Notes: generated from the letters alone by a model not told the origin. Counted from the stretch's first letter, positions 2,184-52,084 are shown. The stretch: DNA of 64,000 nt from Candidatus Bathyarchaeota archaeon (GCA_963807605.1 CAWECG010000003.1:448377-512376); one strand, 5' to 3'. Translations and numbers: made by a program.

Positions 2184-2696
2184 GTGTCGTCACTTCGTGT
2201 TATGATATTCATAGACGGTTCAAATCTATTCAAAGCATCAGAACGATATAGAACGGGGTATCGCCCTGACCTGGCGAAACTCCAAGATAAGTTGGTCAAG
2301 GGTCGAACGTTGATGAGAACCTATTACTACTGCTCAATAGCTAATCCACCAAGAATTGAGCAGATCAAGTTTCAAGATAAATTGAAAAATCTACACATCC
2401 AAGTGGTTTCTAAGTCTCTCAAAAATCGTCCTACTGGTGAAAAGGTTGAAAAGGGGGTCGATGTTGCACTTGTGACTGACATGCTTAGCCTTGCGTTTCG
2501 TAATGCGTATGATGTAGCCATTTTGGTCAGCGGCGATAGCGACTTCCTTCAAACGGTGAATGAAGTCAAACGAGCTGGCAAAAGAGTTGAAATAGCTTCA
2601 TTCAGGTTCACTATAGGCAAGGAGTTACAAACGGAAGCTGACGATTTCATTCCAATTGAACCAATAGCCGATGAGATAGCACTTGAGCGAGGCTAA
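2184..2696 (+). CDS. NYN/LabA-like (PIN-fold) domain protein
   Basis: Translation has the NYN/LabA signature: IFIDGSNL near the N-terminus, GVDVALVTDM, and ILVSGDSDF (the acidic catalytic-site motifs of the DUF88/NYN fold). Confidence 0.7.
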   Translation: MSSLRVMIFIDGSNLFKASERYRTGYRPDLAKLQDKLVKGRTLMRTYYYCSIANPPRIEQIKFQDKLKNLHIQVVSKSLKNRPTGEKVEKGVDVALVTDMLSLAFRNAYDVAILVSGDSDFLQTVNEVKRAGKRVEIASFRFTIGKELQTEADDFIPIEPIADEIALERG

Positions 2697-3623: not shown

Positions 3624-3951
3624 AGCAACTCACTAGTCTATTTTCCATTATCCCTAGAAAACTATGGGTCAACGTTATTTGGTGGTGGATAATGGGTGAG
3701 CGCATCTTAATTTGGACACATTCATAACCTTAGACCCTAGATATCCTAGCATTCAAAACCTTAGAACCTAACCAAATTGGCTGTCTGAGTGTAAATTGGT
3801 GCGCGAATCCCACTCCCCGCACCAATACGCGCCTGCGTGTTGACGCAAGCCCGCGCGTATGTCGGCAAGATTGGCTCGGGATTTCACGGCAGTCATACAA
3901 AGAAATCGTGGCGACGCCGCTGAAGCTGCACGACAATTATACAATTAAGAT

Positions 3952-5997: not shown

Positions 5998-6060
5998 GAG
6001 ACTCCAAATTCAATTCTTACTGACGATATTTATGGTTAATGGCGAGAAGAAACTTAAGAT

Positions 6061-6214
6061 GCACTCACCAGCTATGTCACACACAGACAAAAAAATCAAT
6101 ACCTAACGGTTAAAATTCAGATGCTCTCACCAAGGGACACAGAAAAATAGCTCGCTCTAACGGTTCAAATCCATGTGATCTCACCAGCTAAGGCGCACAT
6201 ACTTTTTTTTAAGG
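6061..6214 (+). repeat. tandem array of three ~53-nt units of a dispersed repeat family
   Basis: Units start near 6061, 6111 and 6165 and share the core (g)atgc(a/t)ctcaccag.. ..cacaca plus acggtt(a/c)aaat(t/c)ca. The third unit is followed by a T8 run. Confidence 0.7.
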
Positions 6215-6217
6215 AAG

Positions 6218-6406
6218 TTGCTTGTCCCTATTCTAGGGAAGTCTGCAATGGAACTTGATTTGGATTCATGGGAACAACGAGTCGCGAATCCAAAGGCGTT
6301 GGGTGATGCAGGGAAGACTCTGTGGAAGAAAATACAACCTGTTCTCAACGACGTTTTGGATGAGATAAAAAAGAACGGGAGAATTAACAATTTACGTAAA
6401 AGCTGA
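6218..6406 (+). CDS. small hypothetical protein (62 aa) abutting the downstream ORF
   Basis: Its stop TGA is immediately followed by the ATG of 6408..6926 in the +1 frame. It may be a partner protein or the N-terminal part of a frameshifted gene. Confidence 0.3.
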   Translation: MLVPILGKSAMELDLDSWEQRVANPKALGDAGKTLWKKIQPVLNDVLDEIKKNGRINNLRKS

Positions 6407-6407
6407 G

Positions 6408-6926
6408 ATGGACAGACTCAGTGGCCCAATCAAAATGCTTGAAGAAATAACCGCAACTTACAACACGGTAATCCATATCTTTGAGAGACCGCAGGAAGAG
6501 CGGTTGCGATTCTTCCAGGCAATCCAACCATTCGGTTTCGAAGAAGCTAGTGTGACCCGCATGCATCTAACGTTGGCGGTAGCGATCACTGTTCTTTCAA
6601 CAGAACTCTTCAAGCTAGTTCTGCTATTTCATATGAAAGATGTAAGCCCTGATGTCTCAAAATTCAATATCACAATGCAAAGTTCTGCTCCCAAAACTTG
6701 GCCGCTGCTCAAGCTTTTCGTTGACAATGATTTTCGCAACGCCTTAGCGCACGGTACGTACGCTATTGTCAACAAGAAGATTGTCCTCTACAGGGATACA
6801 ACGCTGATTCCATTTGAGGAAATGGAGCTTCACGAGTTCATGATGAGGAGCAAAGATCAGAATGTGCTGTTTCACTGCCTCTTCAATGTCTTAGCGGCTA
6901 AGAAAAGATTGGGCTTCTTCACTTGA
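6408..6926 (+). CDS. hypothetical protein with HEPN-like Rx4HG motif
   Basis: 172 aa, predicted mostly helical. Contains DNDFRNALAHGTY (R-x4-H-G..Y), which resembles the HEPN/HepT ribonuclease active-site motif R(N)xxxH.Y. Confidence 0.45.
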   Translation: MDRLSGPIKMLEEITATYNTVIHIFERPQEERLRFFQAIQPFGFEEASVTRMHLTLAVAITVLSTELFKLVLLFHMKDVSPDVSKFNITMQSSAPKTWPLLKLFVDNDFRNALAHGTYAIVNKKIVLYRDTTLIPFEEMELHEFMMRSKDQNVLFHCLFNVLAAKKRLGFFT

Positions 6927-6997
6927 TCAGTTCGATTAACTAGACTTAGATCCGAAGTATGTGACTTCTGCGAGCGTAGCGAGCCATTAGATTATGA

Positions 6998-7088
6998 TTT
7001 GTGTGTGTGCCATAGCTGGTGAGCACACACAATTAACCTGCTCCAACGGTTCAAATTACGATGCTCTCACCAGCTAAGTTGACAAAAG
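6998..7088. repeat. two copies of the dispersed repeat in inverted orientation (palindromic unit plus tRNA-T-loop-like unit)
   Basis: 6998-7033 'ttgtgtgtgtgccatagctggtgagcacacacaat' is a near-perfect hairpin version. 7045-7088 'aacggttcaaattacgatgctctcaccagctaagttgac' is the direct-orientation unit. Confidence 0.7.
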
Positions 7089-7143
7089 TTAAAAGACTCG
7101 AGCAGTAGATCATTAGTCTTAGATGAGTTTGTGAGGTGATAAG

Positions 7144-7515
7144 ATGCCAAAAATGGAAGTAAAGAGTCTGAATTCTCCGGATGAAGTGAGAACTTTCGAG
7201 AAGGGGAAGCTGGAACTTGTAAGTATTGGAGGAGCAACGGTTGTGCGTTATACACTGGAACCTGGGTGGCGATGGTCTAAACACGTCAAGCCAGTAGCGA
7301 AGACCGAGAGTTGTGAGGCTCCACATTTTGAATATCACGTCTCAGGAATTATGCATGTTGTGATGGATGATGGTACAGAAAGAGACGTGAAAGCTGGTGA
7401 AGTCTCCTCAATTCCGCCAGGACACGATGGTTGGGTTGTTGGAAACGAACCTGCGGTCGTAGTTGATTTCCAAGGATTGGTCGATTACGCCAAGCAGCCA
7501 CCAAGAAATAAGTAG
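7144..7515 (+). CDS. cupin-domain protein
   Basis: 123 aa; the beta-strand-rich core with HxH-like residues (EYHVSGIMHVVMDDGTE ... PPGHDGWVV) fits the small cupin_2 barrel. Confidence 0.6.
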   Translation: MPKMEVKSLNSPDEVRTFEKGKLELVSIGGATVVRYTLEPGWRWSKHVKPVAKTESCEAPHFEYHVSGIMHVVMDDGTERDVKAGEVSSIPPGHDGWVVGNEPAVVVDFQGLVDYAKQPPRNK

Positions 7516-7543
7516 CATTCCAAAACCATTTTTTTGTGTCCCT

Positions 7544-7578
7544 TTGTGTGTGTGCCCTAGCTGGTGAGCACACAATGG
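7544..7578 (-). repeat. palindromic copy of the dispersed repeat
   Basis: 'ttgtgtgtgtgccctagctggtgagcacacaatgg' is the reverse complement of the core ctcaccagcta.ggcacacaca and can fold as an 8-9-bp stem hairpin. Confidence 0.7.
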
Positions 7579-7582
7579 ATTC

Positions 7583-8152
7583 CTAGACGTTATCGCGGTA
7601 ATTCCATACCTTCCGAAGAGTTTCCATATATTCTCGGTCTGCGTTTGGATAGAACTCTTCAAGCCTTTTCCATTTCTCGCGCATTTGGGTGACGTCAAGC
7701 ATCCAGTAGGCGTCCTTCATGCTGATTTCTGATGTACTTACGATGAGTCTCACGAGATACTCCTTGAACGATCCCTTCGCGCTCAAATAGCGTTCACTTG
7801 TGCCGAATATCAGATCAGCTATTTCATTTATGGAATTACTTGCTTCAAATGCGAACCATAACAGGGTTAATCCTTTGGGGTCAAATTGCGAGTAGTTCAA
7901 CTGTCCCCATTCCTGATAGTATCTGCTGACAATTTCAGGATGAATCTTCTCCTGAATCACGACATCAATTAGTGACTTGCCACTCTTGAAGAGTCTAAAC
8001 AGCCTTGATGCTAGCTCGCCGTTTAACTCAGAGCTGACTGTCCTTACTTCATCCTCGCTATTGGTGCTGAGGGATTGCGGCTTGAGTGTCCTGTGTATTG
8101 TTGTGATGGAAGAATTTGTTACCTTTGCTATGACTCTATAGCTCATCTTCAA
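7583..8152 (-). CDS. hypothetical protein with N-terminal HTH-like segment
   Basis: 189 aa; the N-terminus YRVIAKVTNSSITTIHRTL looks like a helix-turn-helix. The rest is unassigned. Confidence 0.4.
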   Translation of the reverse strand: MKMSYRVIAKVTNSSITTIHRTLKPQSLSTNSEDEVRTVSSELNGELASRLFRLFKSGKSLIDVVIQEKIHPEIVSRYYQEWGQLNYSQFDPKGLTLLWFAFEASNSINEIADLIFGTSERYLSAKGSFKEYLVRLIVSTSEISMKDAYWMLDVTQMREKWKRLEEFYPNADREYMETLRKVWNYRDNV

Positions 8153-8172
8153 TGCTCTAAGCCGTTTGATCC

Positions 8173-9033
8173 ATGCTGCCAGATCCTCGTTTTCCTGCTG
8201 TTTCCGGGGGTATCGTGTACGTAGGCTCAGGGGATGGTAAGGTGTATGCGTTGAATGCTGCTACAGGAGCCAAGGTATGGAATTACGCAACAGGCGTCCC
8301 TGTCGCGTCTTCTCCTGCTGTTTCAGGTGGTATCGTGTACGTAGGCTCATTTGATGGTAATGTGTATGCGTTGAATGCTACCACAGGCGCCAAGGTATGG
8401 AATTACACAGTGCGCTACGGTGTCACAACTTCTTCTCCTGCTGTTTCAGGAACCGTTGTGTACGTAGGCTCATTGGATGGTAAGGTGTATGCGTTTGCAC
8501 CTACTTCAGCTCAGGTGGCTTGTGCCACGGGCACTGGGACGGGGACGTTCACTATGAGTCCGAGTACTGCTGGAGGATTCACAAGTCTAACCGCTTCAGC
8601 ATCATCGAGTGTCTCACCCGCTCCGCCAGCAGGGTTAACGTTTCCTGACGGCTTATTCTCCTTCACAATCTCAGGTCTCGCACCGAGGGCAACTGTTACA
8701 GTAACCCTCAAGTTGCCTGCTCCGTTGCCGGCGGGTTCCTTCTCGTATTGGAAGTTTCAGTCTGGTGTGTGGAGTCAGTATTCGTCGGCTTCGCTTGATT
8801 CCACTCGAACCATTATCACGTTAACCTTCACCGCATCAGCCAGTGGCACAATTACTGACCCTGGGGGCCCAGCAATCGTGCCGCCTCCTCCGTCCGCAAG
8901 ACCGGTCGGAGGCGTCGTGGAACCCGTCAACAAACTCACACTTCTCACACCATATTTGGCCTTCTTCGGAGTGGTCGCGGCTGTTGCAGTCGTCATTGTG
9001 ACGGATAGGAAACGCAGAGAACCCACAGACTAG
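8173..9033 (+). CDS. PQQ-like beta-propeller repeat protein, N-terminally truncated, with C-terminal TM anchor
   Basis: Three or more tandem ~40-aa repeats SPAVSGGIVYVGSxDGxVYALNAxTGAKVWNY (PQQ/WD-like blades), then a Ser/Thr-rich linker and a C-terminal hydrophobic helix plus a basic tail. The ORF starts inside a repeat with no signal peptide, so it is probably a fragment. Confidence 0.6.
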   Translation: MLPDPRFPAVSGGIVYVGSGDGKVYALNAATGAKVWNYATGVPVASSPAVSGGIVYVGSFDGNVYALNATTGAKVWNYTVRYGVTTSSPAVSGTVVYVGSLDGKVYAFAPTSAQVACATGTGTGTFTMSPSTAGGFTSLTASASSSVSPAPPAGLTFPDGLFSFTISGLAPRATVTVTLKLPAPLPAGSFSYWKFQSGVWSQYSSASLDSTRTIITLTFTASASGTITDPGGPAIVPPPPSARPVGGVVEPVNKLTLLTPYLAFFGVVAAVAVVIVTDRKRREPTD

Positions 9034-9070
9034 TCAGTGAGCTGATTTCGCAATCCCTGATTTTGTGTGT

Positions 9071-9120
9071 GTACCTTAGCTGGCGAGAGCATCTAGAATT
9101 GAACCGCTTGGTATTGATTG
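9071..9120 (-). repeat. dispersed repeat copy (reverse orientation)
   Basis: Reverse complement reads 'caagcggttcaattctagatgctctcgccagctaaggtacacacacaaaa', matching the family consensus. Confidence 0.7.
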
Positions 9121-9953
9121 ATGGTGTGTGCTCGCTCCGTGCAAACGTGGAGCGTCTTGACGTCAAAAGTTCTGCAGCGCTAGGCAGACGGGGATACCTT
9201 CTCTTTCTCTACAGGGGCGAGACGGTCTCTTCCCTTTCAAAGGAGGCGGTATCTCTCTCTAATAGTTCCAAGACACACACTAGCGCCCCAATATAAGATT
9301 GATACGGGTTCGTAAGGATAGTACCTTACTAAGCTACGGGCCCGCGCAGTAGCACCTACTCTCCTTTGCATTAAAAAAACCTTTCAGCAAAGCTGCTTAG
9401 AGGAAACAGAGCCTCGCCGTTGTGTACCCAATAATCGGCTATTTCATCTAGTCGGGCTATCCGCAAAAGCGACGAACGAGAAAGGCTTTAAAGTTACTCT
9501 GAAACCTATAGACAAGCTTGGCTGGACTAATAGGCCGTGCCCAACCGTCATGGGTGCATAGAGGTAGTATAGTCTGGCCTAGTAAGCCTAGAAAGGCCTA
9601 GAGTGTACGGCTGTCACCCGTACGACTTCCGATAGGAGGACGTGACGCGGGTCCAAATCCCGCCCTAAGGGGAGCGCTCAAAGCTCTCTCCTGGCGATGG
9701 GCGCCAACCTCATTGCCCGCGTTCACCACTCCAGAGGCAGTCGCTGAGCAGACTATTCTTTTGTGACCGCATGTGGCGGAAAGAATTGGCATCAACAAGC
9801 CAGCAGGTCAGTCATAGAGCTAATTGGTGTTCAGGTCATTCAACCCGTTCTGTAATAAATATCTTCATGCAACAAGGTTGTATCCAAGTGGACAACTATT
9901 CTCTTCGGGAGAAGGAATGTTGGAGCCTTATTCCAGAATTGAGTATATACAGA

Positions 9954-11070
9954 GCGCGCGGGGTTGTCCCGTTATTAGCGTTTTCATGTTAGGTTTGTCC
10001 AGTAGGTTATGCTTCTGGTTTTGGTGGGTTGTTTGGTGTTGTGTGAGGCTTCTATGGTGTAGAGGAGGCATAGTATGCAGTAGCTGATGTGGATGGTGAT
10101 GTTTTCTAGTCCTCGTGTCTTGTGGTTGTTGAGGTTGAGGTGTTCTTTGAGTGATGCGAAGACCAACTCGATGATGGAGCGTTTATTGTAGATGTGTTTG
10201 AGGTTTTCTGGGCCGTGTGTTTTGAAGTCGCTGGTTACTCTGAGGATGTTTTGTCTTTCAGGTTTCTGGTTGGCTGGGTAGGGTATCGCGGTCTTGATTC
10301 TGTGTTTTTTAGCGGTCTCTCTGAGTCTGTTGCTGGAGTATTGACTGTCAGCGGTTAGCTGTCGGATTCTGGTTGCTGTGGTTTTAACTGTCATTTTGAG
10401 GAGTGGTATGCTCGGTTTCTTCTCGTTAGTGTTTGCTGGTGTCACTAGGAATGTTAGGGGTGTGGCTGTGTCTGTATCGACTGTTAGGTGTAGTTTGTAG
10501 CCTAACCCGTATGTGCGGTAGGCTCTTCCTACACGTGCTTGAGGGTCACTGAAGCCTGTTCTATTGTTTATGTTTCGTCTGCTGTAGGCTTTGATGAAGG
10601 TGGCGTCCATAGCAACTATTCTTGGTGTTACATAGCGCTTCTTCAGTAATTTCTTGACCTGTTTGTTTACTATGCGTCTTAGTCTTCTTGTTCCTAGTCG
10701 CTGGTTGAATCTTGAGAGTACCGTCCTACCGTAGGCTGGCTCCTCATATCTTATGTCGCATATGTCACGTAGCCGCTCATCGATCCATAAGCGACGTTCA
10801 AGCTCACGCAGACTGTTTATTCTGAGGTAGCGTCTGGCAAGGTGTGCCTTGAAGAGTCCTAGAGGGTTACGTGGAGGTTTACCTGGACCTTCTTGATGAT
10901 AGCAACTAACAACTAGACGTTCAACAAATGATAAATCCAGATTACTCAGCAGTGACTCCAGAGTCTCGTACCCTTCTATCTGGAATCTCCTCCAAGTAGA
11001 AGGGTGCGGGGCTCAACCCTTATGGATCTTTCCGTGTCAACTCAAAGAATATCGGGACAACCCTGCGCGC
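9954..11070 (-). mobile_element. insertion sequence (~1.1 kb) with 23-bp terminal inverted repeats; IS4/IS5-superfamily DDE transposase
   Basis: Left end 9954-9976 'gcgcgcggggttgtcccgttatt'. The reverse complement of 11048-11070 is 'gcgcgcagggttgtcccgatatt' (21/23 identical). The single internal ORF is a DDE transposase. Flanks are ..caga| and |taga.., suggesting a short AGA-type target duplication. Confidence 0.65.
9984..10988 (-). CDS. IS4/IS5-family DDE transposase (no canonical start codon upstream of Met-126; possibly inactive)
   Basis: The ATG-initiated part (9984..10610) begins MDATFIKAYSRR.., typical of DDE_Tnp_1. The same frame stays open upstream to a TGA at ~10989 and encodes the usual N-terminal region (..GKPPRNPLGLFKAHLARRYL..), but with no ATG/GTG/TTG. 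Confidence 0.6.
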   Translation of the reverse strand, partial: RFQIEGYETLESLLSNLDLSFVERLVVSCYHQEGPGKPPRNPLGLFKAHLARRYLRINSLRELERRLWIDERLRDICDIRYEEPAYGRTVLSRFNQRLGTRRLRRIVNKQVKKLLKKRYVTPRIVAMDATFIKAYSRRNINNRTGFSDPQARVGRAYRTYGLGYKLHLTVDTDTATPLTFLVTPANTNEKKPSIPLLKMTVKTTATRIRQLTADSQYSSNRLRETAKKHRIKTAIPYPANQKPERQNILRVTSDFKTHGPENLKHIYNKRSIIELVFASLKEHLNLNNHKTRGLENITIHISYCILCLLYTIEASHNTKQPTKTRSITYWTNLT

Positions 11071-11326
11071 TAGAAGCCGAGACGATATCTGCATTAATCA
11101 TGGATGAGATGCCGATAGGAGTAGTGAACGATAAACCCGCTGGCGTAAGATTGATACCTGTCCCTAATAGAGAGTTGGCGACACTGTCAAGTTTGGGGGG
11201 TTGTTAGGAGAAACGATCATAATGCCTATCAGCACTTTCAGTTCAGCTAGATTCGTAAGGCGAGGAGGGCAGATTCCAGCCCCTATACTCAGCCTGACAG
11301 GATAACGAGATTGGAGTGAGTTTAAG

Positions 11327-47301: not shown

Positions 47302-47475
47302 AATTCAGGCCATTTCGATTCCCAAGCCGAATCTCGTTCGATCCCGTTTGCCATTCACTATTTCAAGAAAACTCAGTCCAAACCATGAAAGGTCTGCAAG
47401 TCGTAGACTAACGATTGCTTTGTCGGGTAATCAGCGAAATCATGCAGAAAGCCAACGGAGGGCTCTAGCCTGACA

Positions 47476-47513
47476 ATATTGATTGGTAGCGCGGACTAGC
47501 TGGCAGGCTACCG
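47476..47513 (+). terminator. hairpin plus T-run downstream of the cbi operon (candidate terminator)
   Basis: 'ggtagc gcggactagctggcag gctacc' (6-bp stem) is immediately followed by 'gatttttt'. Confidence 0.3.
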
Positions 47514-48027: not shown

Positions 48028-48062
48028 CTAGCTCATCAGCTAAGGCGCACACACAAAATCAC
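48028..48062 (+). repeat. partial copy of the dispersed repeat (3' half)
   Basis: 'ctagctcatcagctaaggcgcacacacaaaatcac' carries the core agctaaggcgcacacac. Confidence 0.65.
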
Positions 48063-48081: not shown

Positions 48082-48834
48082 TCATTTCTCTCCAGCGATA
48101 ATACCTATCGTTCCCACCATAAATGGCAATTTTAGCGCCAGAGGAATAAAGGCAGCTTCTCGTGTTTCTATAAATTGCGCGTTTCTTATCCCCCAACTTC
48201 GGATAGTCTCAATCAAATCAGCTGTATTGCCATATATCTGCCTCCGCAAGAACAAGTCCTGAAAGACAAATATTCCCCCCTTCTTAACCACACGCAATGC
48301 TTCCCGGATAACTTCTCGCTTATCTTTGGTGTCCCTCACTTCATGAAACACGAGATTGCTTACAACCGCATCAAAATACCCATCCTCAAATGGTAACGCC
48401 GAAGCGCTGGCTTTCTGGAAGGTTACACGCTCATCTACTCCTTCAATCTTCGCATTGCTTTCACATGTGTTTTTTGAGTATCCCCACCGTCTTCCCCAAG
48501 AGTCAATTCCCACAACCCGGCCTCTCGCATACTTTTGAGCAAGCTTGATCGTAAGGGCACCATTTCCACATCCTATATCCAATGCGCGCCCTTCTCCATT
48601 CCAATCCAAATGTGCCAAAACCAATTCAACGATATGGTCTTGGATATTCCCCCCTTGGGCAGAAAACTTGTATCGCGCATACGCACAATAGAGGGAAACT
48701 AGGAAGAACAAACCAGCAGGAATTACGAAGACTGGAAACAAAAGGGCAACCCCCAAAAACACGAGACCTGCAGCACCAGGAATATAGACTAGTCTCTTTG
48801 AGAGCCAGTTCCCGTATTCTGGCTTTCCTGCCAT
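48082..48834 (-). CDS. class I SAM-dependent methyltransferase with N-terminal membrane anchor
   Basis: Motif I (LDIGCGNGALTIKLAQ), motif II (VVGIDSW) and a later DAVVSNLVFHEV; two N-terminal hydrophobic helices. Flanked by repeat copies on both sides. Confidence 0.7.
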   Translation of the reverse strand: MAGKPEYGNWLSKRLVYIPGAAGLVFLGVALLFPVFVIPAGLFFLVSLYCAYARYKFSAQGGNIQDHIVELVLAHLDWNGEGRALDIGCGNGALTIKLAQKYARGRVVGIDSWGRRWGYSKNTCESNAKIEGVDERVTFQKASASALPFEDGYFDAVVSNLVFHEVRDTKDKREVIREALRVVKKGGIFVFQDLFLRRQIYGNTADLIETIRSWGIRNAQFIETREAAFIPLALKLPFMVGTIGIIAGEK

Positions 48835-48955: not shown

Positions 48956-49010
48956 CACAAAAATCACGATTCAAATCATGATGCTCTCACCAGCTAAGGC
49001 ACACACACAG
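48956..49010 (+). repeat. full copy of the dispersed repeat
   Basis: 'acaaaaatcacgattcaaatcatgatgctctcaccagctaaggcacacacacag'. Confidence 0.7.
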
Positions 49011-49251
49011 TACTTAAACGACGATCAACGACCCAGTGAGGCTTAAGAGAGTCTTGAAATATCATTTCTACTGAGTTGAATTGAAGGCATAGCCTCTGAT
49101 AACGGAGGGTTAGTCCATTTATCCTCAGAGTTACCCATATGCGTCACAGTTTGGTCCCCCACCTGCATATCCACCCCTGCCGCTACCTTTCCAAAGAGGT
49201 CCAACAATCTCCGCTCCGACCGCTTCCAAAGTTGCAGGCATATTACTGATA

Positions 49252-51258: not shown

Positions 51259-51492
51259 CTATGGTGAACGTTCGAGTCTGGCGAGGACTTTGGAGTACAT
51301 TCGGAAAGGTGTTCTGCCGGCCGCATTCTTGCGAAGGTGATGCAGTGTACTCTTAGCGATTCCTGGTTTAGAGGCTTGCTTTTGAGTCAACTCTAGGATT
51401 CGTTTACGAAGCTCCACACTATAGCTTTCTACCAGGTTGGGAGGCGCGCGCGCTTTTATATTTTCATTCTCTTCCGGCGAGAATATCTTCAA
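51259..51492 (-). CDS. small hypothetical protein (77 aa), possible HTH
   Basis: A basic C-terminus with LTQKQASKPGIAKSTLHHLRK. Overlaps the 3' end of the next gene by 29 nt. Uncertain. Confidence 0.25.
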   Translation of the reverse strand: MKIFSPEENENIKARAPPNLVESYSVELRKRILELTQKQASKPGIAKSTLHHLRKNAAGRTPFRMYSKVLARLERSP

Positions 51493-52084
51493 TTGGCGGG
51501 AAAGGAGGCTCAGCGCCTATTGAGGAGATCCTGCCGGTTGGGCATACAACATAGCAATGGTTGCATACTGTGCATATTGCTGCCTTTTCAGGGTAGAGCG
51601 CAATCCGTCTCCTTACGCCTCTTCCCACAGATCCAATCGCGCTATCCCAAGTCGCCTCAATGCACCGACGAAGACATAACCCACATAGGATGCATTTCGT
51701 GGGGTCGCTCTGCACCTTTGAGCGGAATCTAGAGAGATCAGCCTTGTATTCGCCGGCCAATTCGCGCATCCTGCCAGCGACATCTTCTCCCGCAGATGCG
51801 GCAGCCAACTCGAGTATGGTCTTTCTCATAGAATCGATTCTGGGAGACCTCGTTCTTACCTTCAAGCCTTCCTCAGCAGGGTAGCAGCACGCAGCGACTA
51901 TCCGTGATCTGCCTCTCTTCTCGATCTCCACGCTGCAGATGCGACAGACGCCATACGACTCCAGCTCCTCGTGATGGCACAGCGTCGGTATCTCCACGCC
52001 TGAACACTTTGCAGCCTCCAGAATCGTCATTCCCTCTTCGGCTTCAACATCTCTATCGTCTATTCTCAAGCTTAGAGCCTTCAT
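51464..52084 (-). CDS. stand-alone NuoG/HydA-N-terminal-like iron-sulfur protein ([2Fe-2S] plus [4Fe-4S] domains)
   Basis: 206 aa with a 2Fe-2S ferredoxin-type N-terminus (CHHEELESYGVCRIC), a His/Cys cluster region (ACCYPAEE), then CILCGLCLRRC and CTVCNHCYVVCP. No catalytic molybdopterin or H-cluster domain follows. Confidence 0.7.
   Translation of the reverse strand: MKALSLRIDDRDVEAEEGMTILEAAKCSGVEIPTLCHHEELESYGVCRICSVEIEKRGRSRIVAACCYPAEEGLKVRTRSPRIDSMRKTILELAAASAGEDVAGRMRELAGEYKADLSRFRSKVQSDPTKCILCGLCLRRCIEATWDSAIGSVGRGVRRRIALYPEKAAICTVCNHCYVVCPTGRISSIGAEPPFPPIEDILAGRE

Follow-up and report, generated by a model that had tools for sequence, protein, structure and literature searches.

The 64,000-nt stretch of DNA analyzed here (the window throughout; GCA_963807605.1, CAWECG010000003.1:448377-512376, from Candidatus Bathyarchaeota archaeon) carries nine copies of a short repeat that lie between open reading frames (ORFs) and border small accessory genes. 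The copies were located with a profile hidden Markov model built from 29 non-identical copies from other genomes and the window. At E ≤ 5e-5, the profile yields exactly nine matches in the window, and no further match has an E-value below 0.03. Pattern searches point the same way, with five matches to the 20-mer GATGCTCTCACCAGCTAAGG at up to three mismatches (0.01 expected) and 12 matches to the 11-mer CTCACCAGCTA at up to one mismatch (0.9 expected). All nine copies listed by a first-pass annotation of the sequence are thus present, and they occur on both strands and only between ORFs, as it had described. Casposons are transposons whose integrase is a Cas1 protein, and we propose with moderate confidence that the repeat is a casposon target occurring in many copies. 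Its 14-bp core would be the target-site duplication (TSD), its left flank (L1) a leader-like recognition sequence, and the gene cassettes between copies inserted or decayed casposon-type segments.

Other genomes carry the family as well, as the search of related metagenome-assembled genomes (MAGs) suggested by the first-pass annotation shows (related loci are cited below by L numbers). Scanning one genome per species with the core pattern gave 66 loci, 39 of which come from nine Bathyarchaeia MAGs; MFD12973 bin19 supplies 23 of these 39, and RBG_13_38_9 seven. The bacterial matches to the pattern represent a conserved coding motif. The repeat is present in at least nine Bathyarchaeia MAGs. About one-third of the archaeal matches come to within 300 nt of a contig end, which is expected of repeats that break assemblies. 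In the literature, the core sequence was matched by chance in unrelated texts only (13 matches), and the topic of MITEs (miniature inverted-repeat transposable elements) or integrons in Bathyarchaeota gave nothing relevant.

The unit has a modular anatomy. Its center is the core of 14 nt, CTCACCAGCTAWGG, which is essentially invariant and measures exactly 14 bp between all types of arm. The left flank L1 reads ..GGTTCAAWTTnGGATGCT; its positions -27 to -11, counted from the A of CTA (..GTTCAatTTTgGATGCT), are at least 80% conserved, and an A/T-rich stretch lies farther upstream. Measured from the core, conservation of at least 80% reaches 17 nt upstream and continues more weakly to 27 nt. Arms were counted at 76 core sites placed in the forward orientation of the core, with L037 left out. 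L1 stands on the left of the core 38 times, and its reverse complement is never found on the right. The other arms are mutual reverse complements and occur on either side: (TG)n left 19 times and (CA)n right 57 times, (GTC)n left five times and (GAC)n right three times, and a casposon-type arm, TACCTATAWCCCC left five times and GGGGWTATAGGTA right twice. Mixed pairs are also found (L1/GAC, L1/casposon terminus, TG/GAC, GTC/CA, GTC/casposon terminus and TG/unique DNA). A one-sided L1 combined with arms that appear on both sides is the pattern predicted by a TSD with a fixed leader and inverted insert ends. The (CA)n arm is followed by an A-run, which is oligo-T on the opposite strand. Tandem arrays of the unit have a period of 49–62 nt and contain CA-linker-L1 mini-segments of 42–46 nt, and some MAGs hold a form extended leftwards by ~125 nt. 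In some copies of related loci, a subterminal motif M (GCTCGCTTCGCTCG) lies on the (CA)n side, at a distance of 35–40 nt from the core. A subtype-2 core, CTCACCAAGG, comes after a standard unit in copy B of the window, L030 and L064. The contig end at L037 (JBAUBP010000012.1, 1.8–2.0 kb) is a long perfect palindrome that runs through two head-to-head units and beyond them, likely an assembly fold-back artefact at the repeat.

In the window, copies A, B and C form a tandem array at 6054–6204 on the plus strand, where three tandem units had been placed at 6061–6214; the middle one proves to be of the separate subtype. Copy A (6054–6093, E 3.5e-8), unit 1 of the array, consists of a partial L1 (..aagatgca), the core CTCACCAGCTATGT at 6064–6077, a (CA)n arm and an A-run. 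Copy B (6100–6141, E 1.6e-6) is formed by L1, the subtype-2 core CTCACCAAGG at 6126–6135, which is without GCTA, and GACACAG, and copy C (6148–6204, E 2.8e-10) by a full L1 (aacGGTTCAAATCCatgtgat), the core at 6180–6193, CGCACATAC and T8. Copies D (6994–7033; profile match 6994–7029, E 2.6e-8) and F (7543–7578; profile match 7543–7570, E 4.7e-7), both on the minus strand, are hairpins in which the core (7010–7023 and 7555–7568, respectively) is enclosed by (TG)n and (CA)n; this is the structure of the two 'perfect hairpin' copies (6998–7033 and 7543–7578). Motif M is found as GCTCGCTACGCTCG at 6971–6984 (minus strand), ~25 nt from the (TG)n arm of copy D. Copy E (7032–7088, plus strand; profile match 7032–7079, E 1.9e-11) has L1, the core at 7066–7079 and a decayed right arm, and the D/E compound, an inverted core joined through CA-linker-L1 to a forward core, recurs in L002, L017 and L028. 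Two copies are full units with L1, core and (CA)n: copy G (9058–9120, minus strand; core CTCGCCAGCTAAGG at 9074–9087; profile match 9060–9113, E 1.9e-14) and copy I (48956–49014, plus strand; core at 48986–48999; E 6.3e-15). Copy H (48028–48062, plus strand; profile match 48032–48059, E 4.7e-5) consists of the core CTCATCAGCTAAGG at 48032–48045 and (CA)n, without L1. A weak match to the L1 part of the profile at 3695–3720 on the minus strand (E 0.04), in the left part of the repeat-bearing island, may be a degenerate tenth copy.

Genes for solo Cas1 proteins stand beside the repeats. Full-length genes are found in L034 (418 aa) and L048 (408 aa), with a match to Pfam PF01867 at 2e-51. Their best match in the PDB is 6OPM, the casposase of Methanosarcina mazei (E 2.3e-74), which aligns over residues 4–403 including the C-terminal helix-turn-helix (HTH), whereas the best CRISPR (repeats that are clustered, regularly interspaced, short and palindromic) Cas1 in the same search scores 1.7e-26. 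No CRISPR array, Cas2 or Cas4 was found at the Cas1-bearing repeat loci. L092 carries a split solo Cas1, and L017 and L010 carry remnants. The window has two remnants on the minus strand. The first, at 47394–47483, stands 540 nt from copy H and is 87–90% identical to residues 225–255 of the Cas1 of L034 and L048 (E 2e-10 to 6.5e-10). The second, at 51274–51498 in the ORF 51259–51492, corresponds to the C-terminal HTH part (residues ~328–404, 40–52% identical, E 4e-11). Cas1 genes or remnants are present in the window and in L010, L017, L034, L048 and L092; the 24 loci without repeats (L068–L091) gave no match to Cas1. In L048 and L092, the Cas1-bearing segment starts directly after a core. The segment of L092, which carries the split gene, is 5.7 kb long and opens with (GAC)n; this locus further contains a tandem pair of L1 units, and perfect 22-nt inverted copies of core plus (CA)n (a/c, 22/22) enclose a TIR-domain gene. 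A conserved set of genes accompanies solo Cas1 (L034 3057–6060, L092 6800–9818, L048 4793–6660), encoding proteins of 245, 101, 265 (P-loop-like), 85 and 122 aa without a family assignment. No HNH or other usual casposon gene was recognized beside the solo Cas1 of L034, L092 and L048, and no relatives of the casposase were found in IMG/VR.

Casposon-type termini abut the core. The arm ..TTACCTATAWCCCC directly joins it in L005, L006, L017, L041 and L064, and the reverse complement of this type of arm lies on the other side of the core in L031, L028 and L034. The arm ..(T)TACCTATAWCCCC shares a 13-nt identity with the end of the M. mazei casposon. Eight loci thus have a casposon-type terminus at a single end, with both junction polarities represented: L1, core and GGGGGGATATAGG.. 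in L031, and ..CCTATAWCCCC, core and (CA)n in L005, L017, L041 and L064. No locus shows both ends of one element. Three to four iterons spaced by ~20 nt lie 20–40 nt inside these termini (L006 1215–1320, L064 1–165, L005 1–273, L028 1–135, L031 2066–2160, L017 3962–4080 and L041 7412–7520). They fall into two subfamilies, ACGTGGAAGT, which includes the palindrome TTCCACGTGGAA, and ACGTTGAGGT, and may represent subterminal binding sites. The first-pass annotation had called the family novel, but it is not beyond classification: in related loci, the core directly abuts casposon terminal repeats, with solo Cas1 genes beside them.

The L1-core unit resembles the 3' end of a tRNA in its spacing (GG-TTCAAAT, 5 nt, 7 nt, A, CCA), and the core opens with CTCA, four bases that would take in the last part of the acceptor strand and the discriminator A of this tRNA-like L1. 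The earlier remark that the repeat mimics a T-loop without folding as a tRNA is borne out. ARAGORN detects no tRNA at the copies, with or without introns, Rfam returns no match to the repeat at gathering or E-value thresholds, and the RNAalifold consensus of the 29 copies reaches only -0.95 kcal/mol, with three pairs and no covariation. A tRNA, split tRNA or tRNA-like RNA was therefore ruled out on both detection and fold, and a known RNA family on the lack of an Rfam match. We propose from the sequence that L1 is a decayed tRNA 3' end comprising T-loop, 3' T-stem and acceptor strand. The likeness to a T-loop is expected of a casposon target derived from the 3' end of a tRNA; the ancestral target would then have been a tRNA ending in ..GGTTCAAATCCnnnnTGCTCTCA.

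Partial tRNA-gene copies could also be left as attL/attR scars by proviruses or plasmids with a tyrosine integrase. The spacing of L1 suits such an origin, and the island borders a probable multi-intron tRNA-Asp gene (~9545–9707). We nevertheless give it next to no credence. The island has no integrase and no viral genes, with no matches to PHROG or integrases; no viral contig carries the motif, and IMG/VR returned a single chance match inside an ORF. The 3' end of the tRNA-Asp is unlike L1, the copy number and the hairpin forms do not fit, and the arms are casposon ends. The tRNA-Asp region itself is part of a non-coding stretch at 9322–9730 (plus strand) that borders the variable island. This stretch is 83–86% conserved at the nucleotide level, whereas the neighboring GGR gene is only ~72% identical in the same relatives. 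It holds tRNA-Asp-like pieces interrupted by additional segments. The pieces are GGTAGTATAGTCTGGCCTAGTA for the D-arm, GTACGG-CTGTCAC-CCGTAC for the anticodon arm (with GTC as the anticodon), GCGGG-TCCAAAT-CCCGC for the T-arm and ..GGGCGCCA for the 3' end. The stretch probably contains, at ~9545–9707, a tRNA-Asp gene with several introns that ARAGORN and Rfam missed.

Among the closest known systems are the family 2 casposons of M. mazei (e.g., MetMaz1FA1A3-C2, at tRNA-Leu/IR1 sites). M. mazei casposons have a 14-bp TSD that opens with CGCA, the final 4 bp of tRNA-Leu (PMC6977970). Integration requires the TSD plus ~30 bp of upstream tRNA sequence (PMC6977970, PMC4779613), and is abolished when bp 12–17 upstream are mutated (PMC6977970). 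The casposon end 5'-GAGTTACCTATATCCC-3' has served for read filtering (PMC6977970), and tandem casposons with one common TSD, as well as solo terminal repeats beside the target motif, are known (PMC4779613). The casposase of A. boonei also requires an upstream 'leader' stretch (PMC6614799). The repeat described here likewise starts its 14 bp at the last 4 bp of a tRNA-like 3' end (CTCA in place of CGCA), has a comparable conserved stretch upstream and is abutted by the terminus ..TTACCTATATCCC-3', and the associated casposase is of similar size (~410 aa) with a C-terminal HTH. The length of the one-sided conserved flank matches that predicted by casposase biochemistry. Unlike in M. mazei, the proposed target is not a working tRNA gene; it is a dispersed, highly conserved repeat that occurs in dozens of copies and in tandem arrays. 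The inserts are mostly single small genes whose ends, (CA)n/(TG)n or (GAC)n, resemble microsatellites; no PolB is seen, many cores are mutually inverted, and the host belongs to Bathyarchaeia (Thermoproteota).

On the casposon model, the casposase would cut the invariant 14 bp in a staggered way, and gap repair would duplicate them at each insertion. The ~17–27 bp 5' of the core (L1) would act as the recognition flank, the counterpart of the CRISPR leader, and the sequences touching the core would be the ends of inserted DNA. These ends would comprise the canonical casposon repeats (GGGGWTATAGGTA..), the (GAC)n and (TG)n of the Cas1-bearing Bathyarchaeia element, and the (CA)n...(TG)n termini of small one-gene segments. 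The (CA)n tract would in addition be the native downstream flank of an unoccupied site: its presence beyond right-end junctions points to L1-core-(CA)n as the form without an insert. If insertion recurred at the core next to L1 and the inserts then decayed, small accessory genes would be left strung between cores, and the (TG)n-core-(CA)n 'hairpin' would be the junction of two neighboring inserts. We infer that a casposase placed the cassettes of the window and that the segments with (CA)n/(TG)n ends derive from casposons and are non-autonomous. The candidate enzyme is a Cas1-type integrase and not an integron integrase.

An independent repeat related to REPs (repetitive extragenic palindromes) and BIMEs (bacterial interspersed mosaic elements), or a MITE, could instead have been spread by a transposase. 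Casposons would merely land in it, and the cassettes would be ordinary accessory genes. Some insertion sequence (IS) elements do target REPs, and many properties of the family have this character: dozens of copies per genome, both orientations, tandem arrays with a period of 49–62 nt, longer forms of ~160 nt in some MAGs, a mosaic with further motifs (motif M and GCGCGCGC), about one-third of the matches within 300 nt of a contig end, a preference for gene 3' ends and convergent gaps, and inverted pairs of units that flank segments in the manner of terminal repeats. Motifs containing GCGCGCGC lie near copies in L019, L031, L054, L063 and L065. By contrast, the block that is invariant across MAGs of otherwise only 75–80% identity where compared consists of 14 bp plus the upstream flank, i.e., the footprint expected of a casposase target, whereas MITE copies normally decay evenly over their length. 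L1 is never inverted beside the core. No RAYT, IS200 or other transposase recurs near the copies (none is recurrent among the ORFs of 39 loci), and Cas1 is the only recurrent enzyme. The stems of enterobacterial REPs and BIMEs, which share short intergenic repeats in both orientations, motif mosaics and a preference for gene 3' ends, are conserved and mobilized by RAYT; here, the stems vary, the 14-nt center is invariant and the associated enzyme is Cas1. We therefore consider an independent repeat of this kind unlikely. The first-pass alternative of a cassette array or a MITE-colonized island holds for the cassette array, as a description, while a plain MITE is the less likely reading.

The distribution of the copies in the window is also uneven. 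They are confined to two variable stretches, a low-GC, gene-sparse region at 4.3–9.3 kb (seven copies) and 48–49 kb around a methyltransferase gene, and no copy was found in ~50 kb of core metabolic genes. Uniform, REP-like spread through core regions, which the first-pass annotation had named as the observation that would speak against it, is thus not seen. At L071 and L072, 1.5 kb with a different gene lie opposite 5.1 kb of the window. The syntenic loci anchored on GGR (L068–L085) have no copies, and at the position of the island their sequence ends or holds other genes. L091 is homologous to the window only rightwards of 49055, i.e., on the right flank of copy I. This syntenic comparison (L068–L085, L091) provided no clean case of cassette presence or absence between copies. 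L017 and L040 are 97.9% identical over 960 nt that end at a (TG)n-core, in MAGs that are otherwise 75–80% identical, and L057 and L064 show a similar homology break at a core.

With respect to genes, a tally of 78 core sites, taken from the window together with 38 related loci, places only three of them within ORFs of at least 90 aa. The copies lie mostly at gene 3' ends and in convergent gaps, with the (CA)n side toward a gene 3' end 18 times and toward a 5' end 8 times. The gene downstream of L1 is co-oriented with it in only 8 of 26 cases (L037 again left out of the orientation counts), so that L1 was rejected as its promoter, and the ATG of the core (CTCACCAGCTATGG) was rejected as a gene start, as the resulting in-frame ORFs have only 5–30 codons. 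The repeat might still serve the host as a protein-binding site, a terminator or promoter module, or an RNA-stabilizing hairpin at the boundaries of accessory genes. Such a role would account for the strong sequence constraint on the unit, for the A-run after (CA)n as an oligo-T terminator on the other strand, and for the bias toward 3' ends, where the hairpin forms could stabilize mRNA. It is very unlikely given that ~30 other intergenic gaps of the window, among core genes, are without a copy, that the orientation relative to genes is inconsistent, that the L1 form has neither fold nor covariation, and that the in-frame ATG opens no more than the short ORFs mentioned above.

The copies delimit the small genes named by the first-pass annotation. 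Between C and D lies a HEPN-like ORF (6408–6926, plus strand; 172 aa) with an Rx4H motif (RNALAH) and no family match; it bears no relation to the AbiV cassette of L048. A cupin gene (7144–7515, plus strand) lies between E and F. Its homologues in L086–L090 are 78–82% identical and are not flanked by the repeat, so that cassette genes do not simply travel with it. The F-G segment is shared by an HTH-like ORF (7583–8152, minus strand), with copy F directly after its stop, and by a 5'-truncated PQQ/β-propeller surface protein (8173–9033, plus strand) that has a choice-of-anchor-U domain and, at its C-terminus, a sorting signal. Between H and I, a class I S-adenosylmethionine-dependent methyltransferase with a membrane anchor is encoded (48082–48834, minus strand). 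Elsewhere, AbiV/HEPN (L048) and TIR-domain (L092) genes stand beside copies, as do genes for surface proteins whose C-terminus carries a sorting signal (L017, L031, L040). This signal, VGG..P.NK..L.PYLAL followed by a transmembrane helix and KRR, was seen at 8890–9033 of the window, in L017 (1147–2067 and 4268–5026) and in L031 (2284–3060). The secreted proteins that bear it form a paralogous family of 13 members in 10 loci, clustered around copies. In the low-GC, gene-sparse left part of the window (1–5 kb), a NYN-domain nuclease (2184–2696, plus strand; Pfam 1e-30, PADLOC NYN/HEC-09) sits among small unannotated ORFs. To the right, an IS element at 9953–11071 has 24-nt terminal inverted repeats, AGCGCGCGGGGTTGTCCCGTTATT, at 9953–9976 and 11048–11071 and a DDE_Tnp_1 ORF of 208 aa (9984–10610, minus strand) that is possibly truncated; it is missing from L068, a relative of 93% identity.

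Cores bound segments C-D, E-F and H-I, which open with (CA)n-like sequence and close with (TG)n or L1. Pairs of direct cores are found at F/G and H/I of the window and in L015, L034, L040 and L063. Inverted cores enclose at least nine one-gene segments, among them C/D and E/F of the window and segments in L031, L017, L064, L048 and L092. In the F-G segment, direct cores that are identical at 12 of 14 positions enclose 1.5 kb, and in the reverse orientation the order is L1, core (G), 1.5 kb, core (F) and (CA)n. The HTH ORF has its only close homologue (54–55% identity) in L092, as the final gene of the Cas1 segment on the (TG)n side, and the same hairpin follows it there. Nucleotide homology extends from 8204 to 7547 of the window (10033–10680 in L092), with the HTH gene and hairpin kept as a unit, and the F-proximal 650 nt of the segment, including the hairpin, are homologous to the end of the Cas1 segment. 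The F-G segment therefore looks like a decayed, rearranged casposon-type insert.

The movement of a gene together with its 3' hairpin, as an ORF with its attC, recalls conservative site-specific recombination of the integron, shufflon or Xer type. In that case the core would be the crossover region and the arms binding sites, and cassettes would be excised, inserted and inverted. The free recombination of arms around a constant core, the many cassettes between inverted cores and the homology breakpoints at cores would all suit it. Like integrons, the islands string single, often promoterless accessory genes between recombination-related repeats, some of them able to form hairpins, and the HTH ORF and its hairpin are conserved together in two genomes. 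However, no tyrosine or serine recombinase was found in the island of the window or, recurrently, in ~290 kb of repeat-bearing DNA. A conserved center with variable arms is the reverse of the lox, FRT, dif and attC architecture, 14 bp is too long for the overlap region of a tyrosine recombinase, and arm types that occur on both sides of the core are impossible by conservative recombination unless the sites start palindromic. GTTRRRY/RYYYAAC boxes are absent from the copies. Recombinase sites of this type are accordingly highly improbable. The view that the family is no classical attC series stands, given the absence of R''/L''/L'/R' boxes (no GTTRRRY at R'' or R') and of IntI, the conserved center in place of conserved ends, and the two orientations.

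Several observations weigh against a casposon target. In loci that span at most 8–11 kb, on contigs breaking at repeats, no casposon was seen complete with its two terminal repeats and a pair of direct cores. No PolB was found among the ORFs in 6–8 kb around Cas1 in L034, L048 and L092, although the elements may extend farther, and the (GAC)n and (TG)n ends of the Cas1 segment of L092 are not mutual inverted repeats. Many one-gene segments lie between inverted cores, which a simple TSD does not predict, and the direct cores around a segment often differ by one or two bases. The window itself has no casposon terminal inverted repeat motif, and its Cas1 is present as remnants only. L1 is not part of a functional tRNA, there are dozens of targets per genome instead of the one or few sites of known casposons, and cupin homologues occur elsewhere without the repeat. 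It is possible that inverted cores arise where opposed arrays meet, by inversion between the 22–26-nt inverted core plus (CA)n sequences, or by flipping of the core in symmetric hairpins. The target may have multiplied by riding on inserts that end in L1 (H-I and the CA-linker-L1 mini-segments) or as a separate MITE-like repeat, and the Cas1-bearing elements may represent a PolB-less type of casposon with microsatellite-like ends.

A casposon target with a one-sided recognition flank, a Cas1-family integrase and a short repeat duplicated at each insertion invites comparison with the leader-repeat junction of CRISPR and integration by Cas1-Cas2; growth would likewise take place at the flank-proximal repeat. 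By contrast, the repeat is 14 bp long instead of 24–48 bp, the 'spacers' range from 40 nt to several kb and carry genes, and Cas2, effector genes and regular spacing are absent. The repeats do not form a CRISPR array: the tandem units are duplications of the whole unit, and the other spacings range from 0.04 to 5.7 kb. In a further, more tentative reading that we regard as possible but doubtful, the casposon target has become a portable landing pad in multiple copies, where casposases acting in trans stack single-gene segments, an integron-like capture of genes by Cas1. The resulting insert-TSD-insert arrays would carry defense-type, surface-protein and methyltransferase genes, and would be a living analogue of the proposed intermediate between casposons and CRISPR arrays.

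The CRISPR adaptation module has been proposed to descend from casposons, which, to our knowledge, have so far been known as rare, large elements at one or few sites per genome. The literature searched holds no description of casposons in Bathyarchaeia, the sole text naming both being a general review. For annotation, this reading would account for a class of assembly-breaking repeats and variable islands in Bathyarchaeia MAGs, and the proposed 45-bp target together with the casposase sequence provides defined material for direct biochemical testing. If the repeat is indeed a casposon target, integration by a casposon-type Cas1 operates in a major uncultured archaeal lineage, where amplification has turned the target site into a family of conserved repeats. 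Leader-repeat-insert arrays with accessory and defense-like genes would then be the product of serial insertions, and would represent the array-building step that the casposon-origin scenario for CRISPR calls for.

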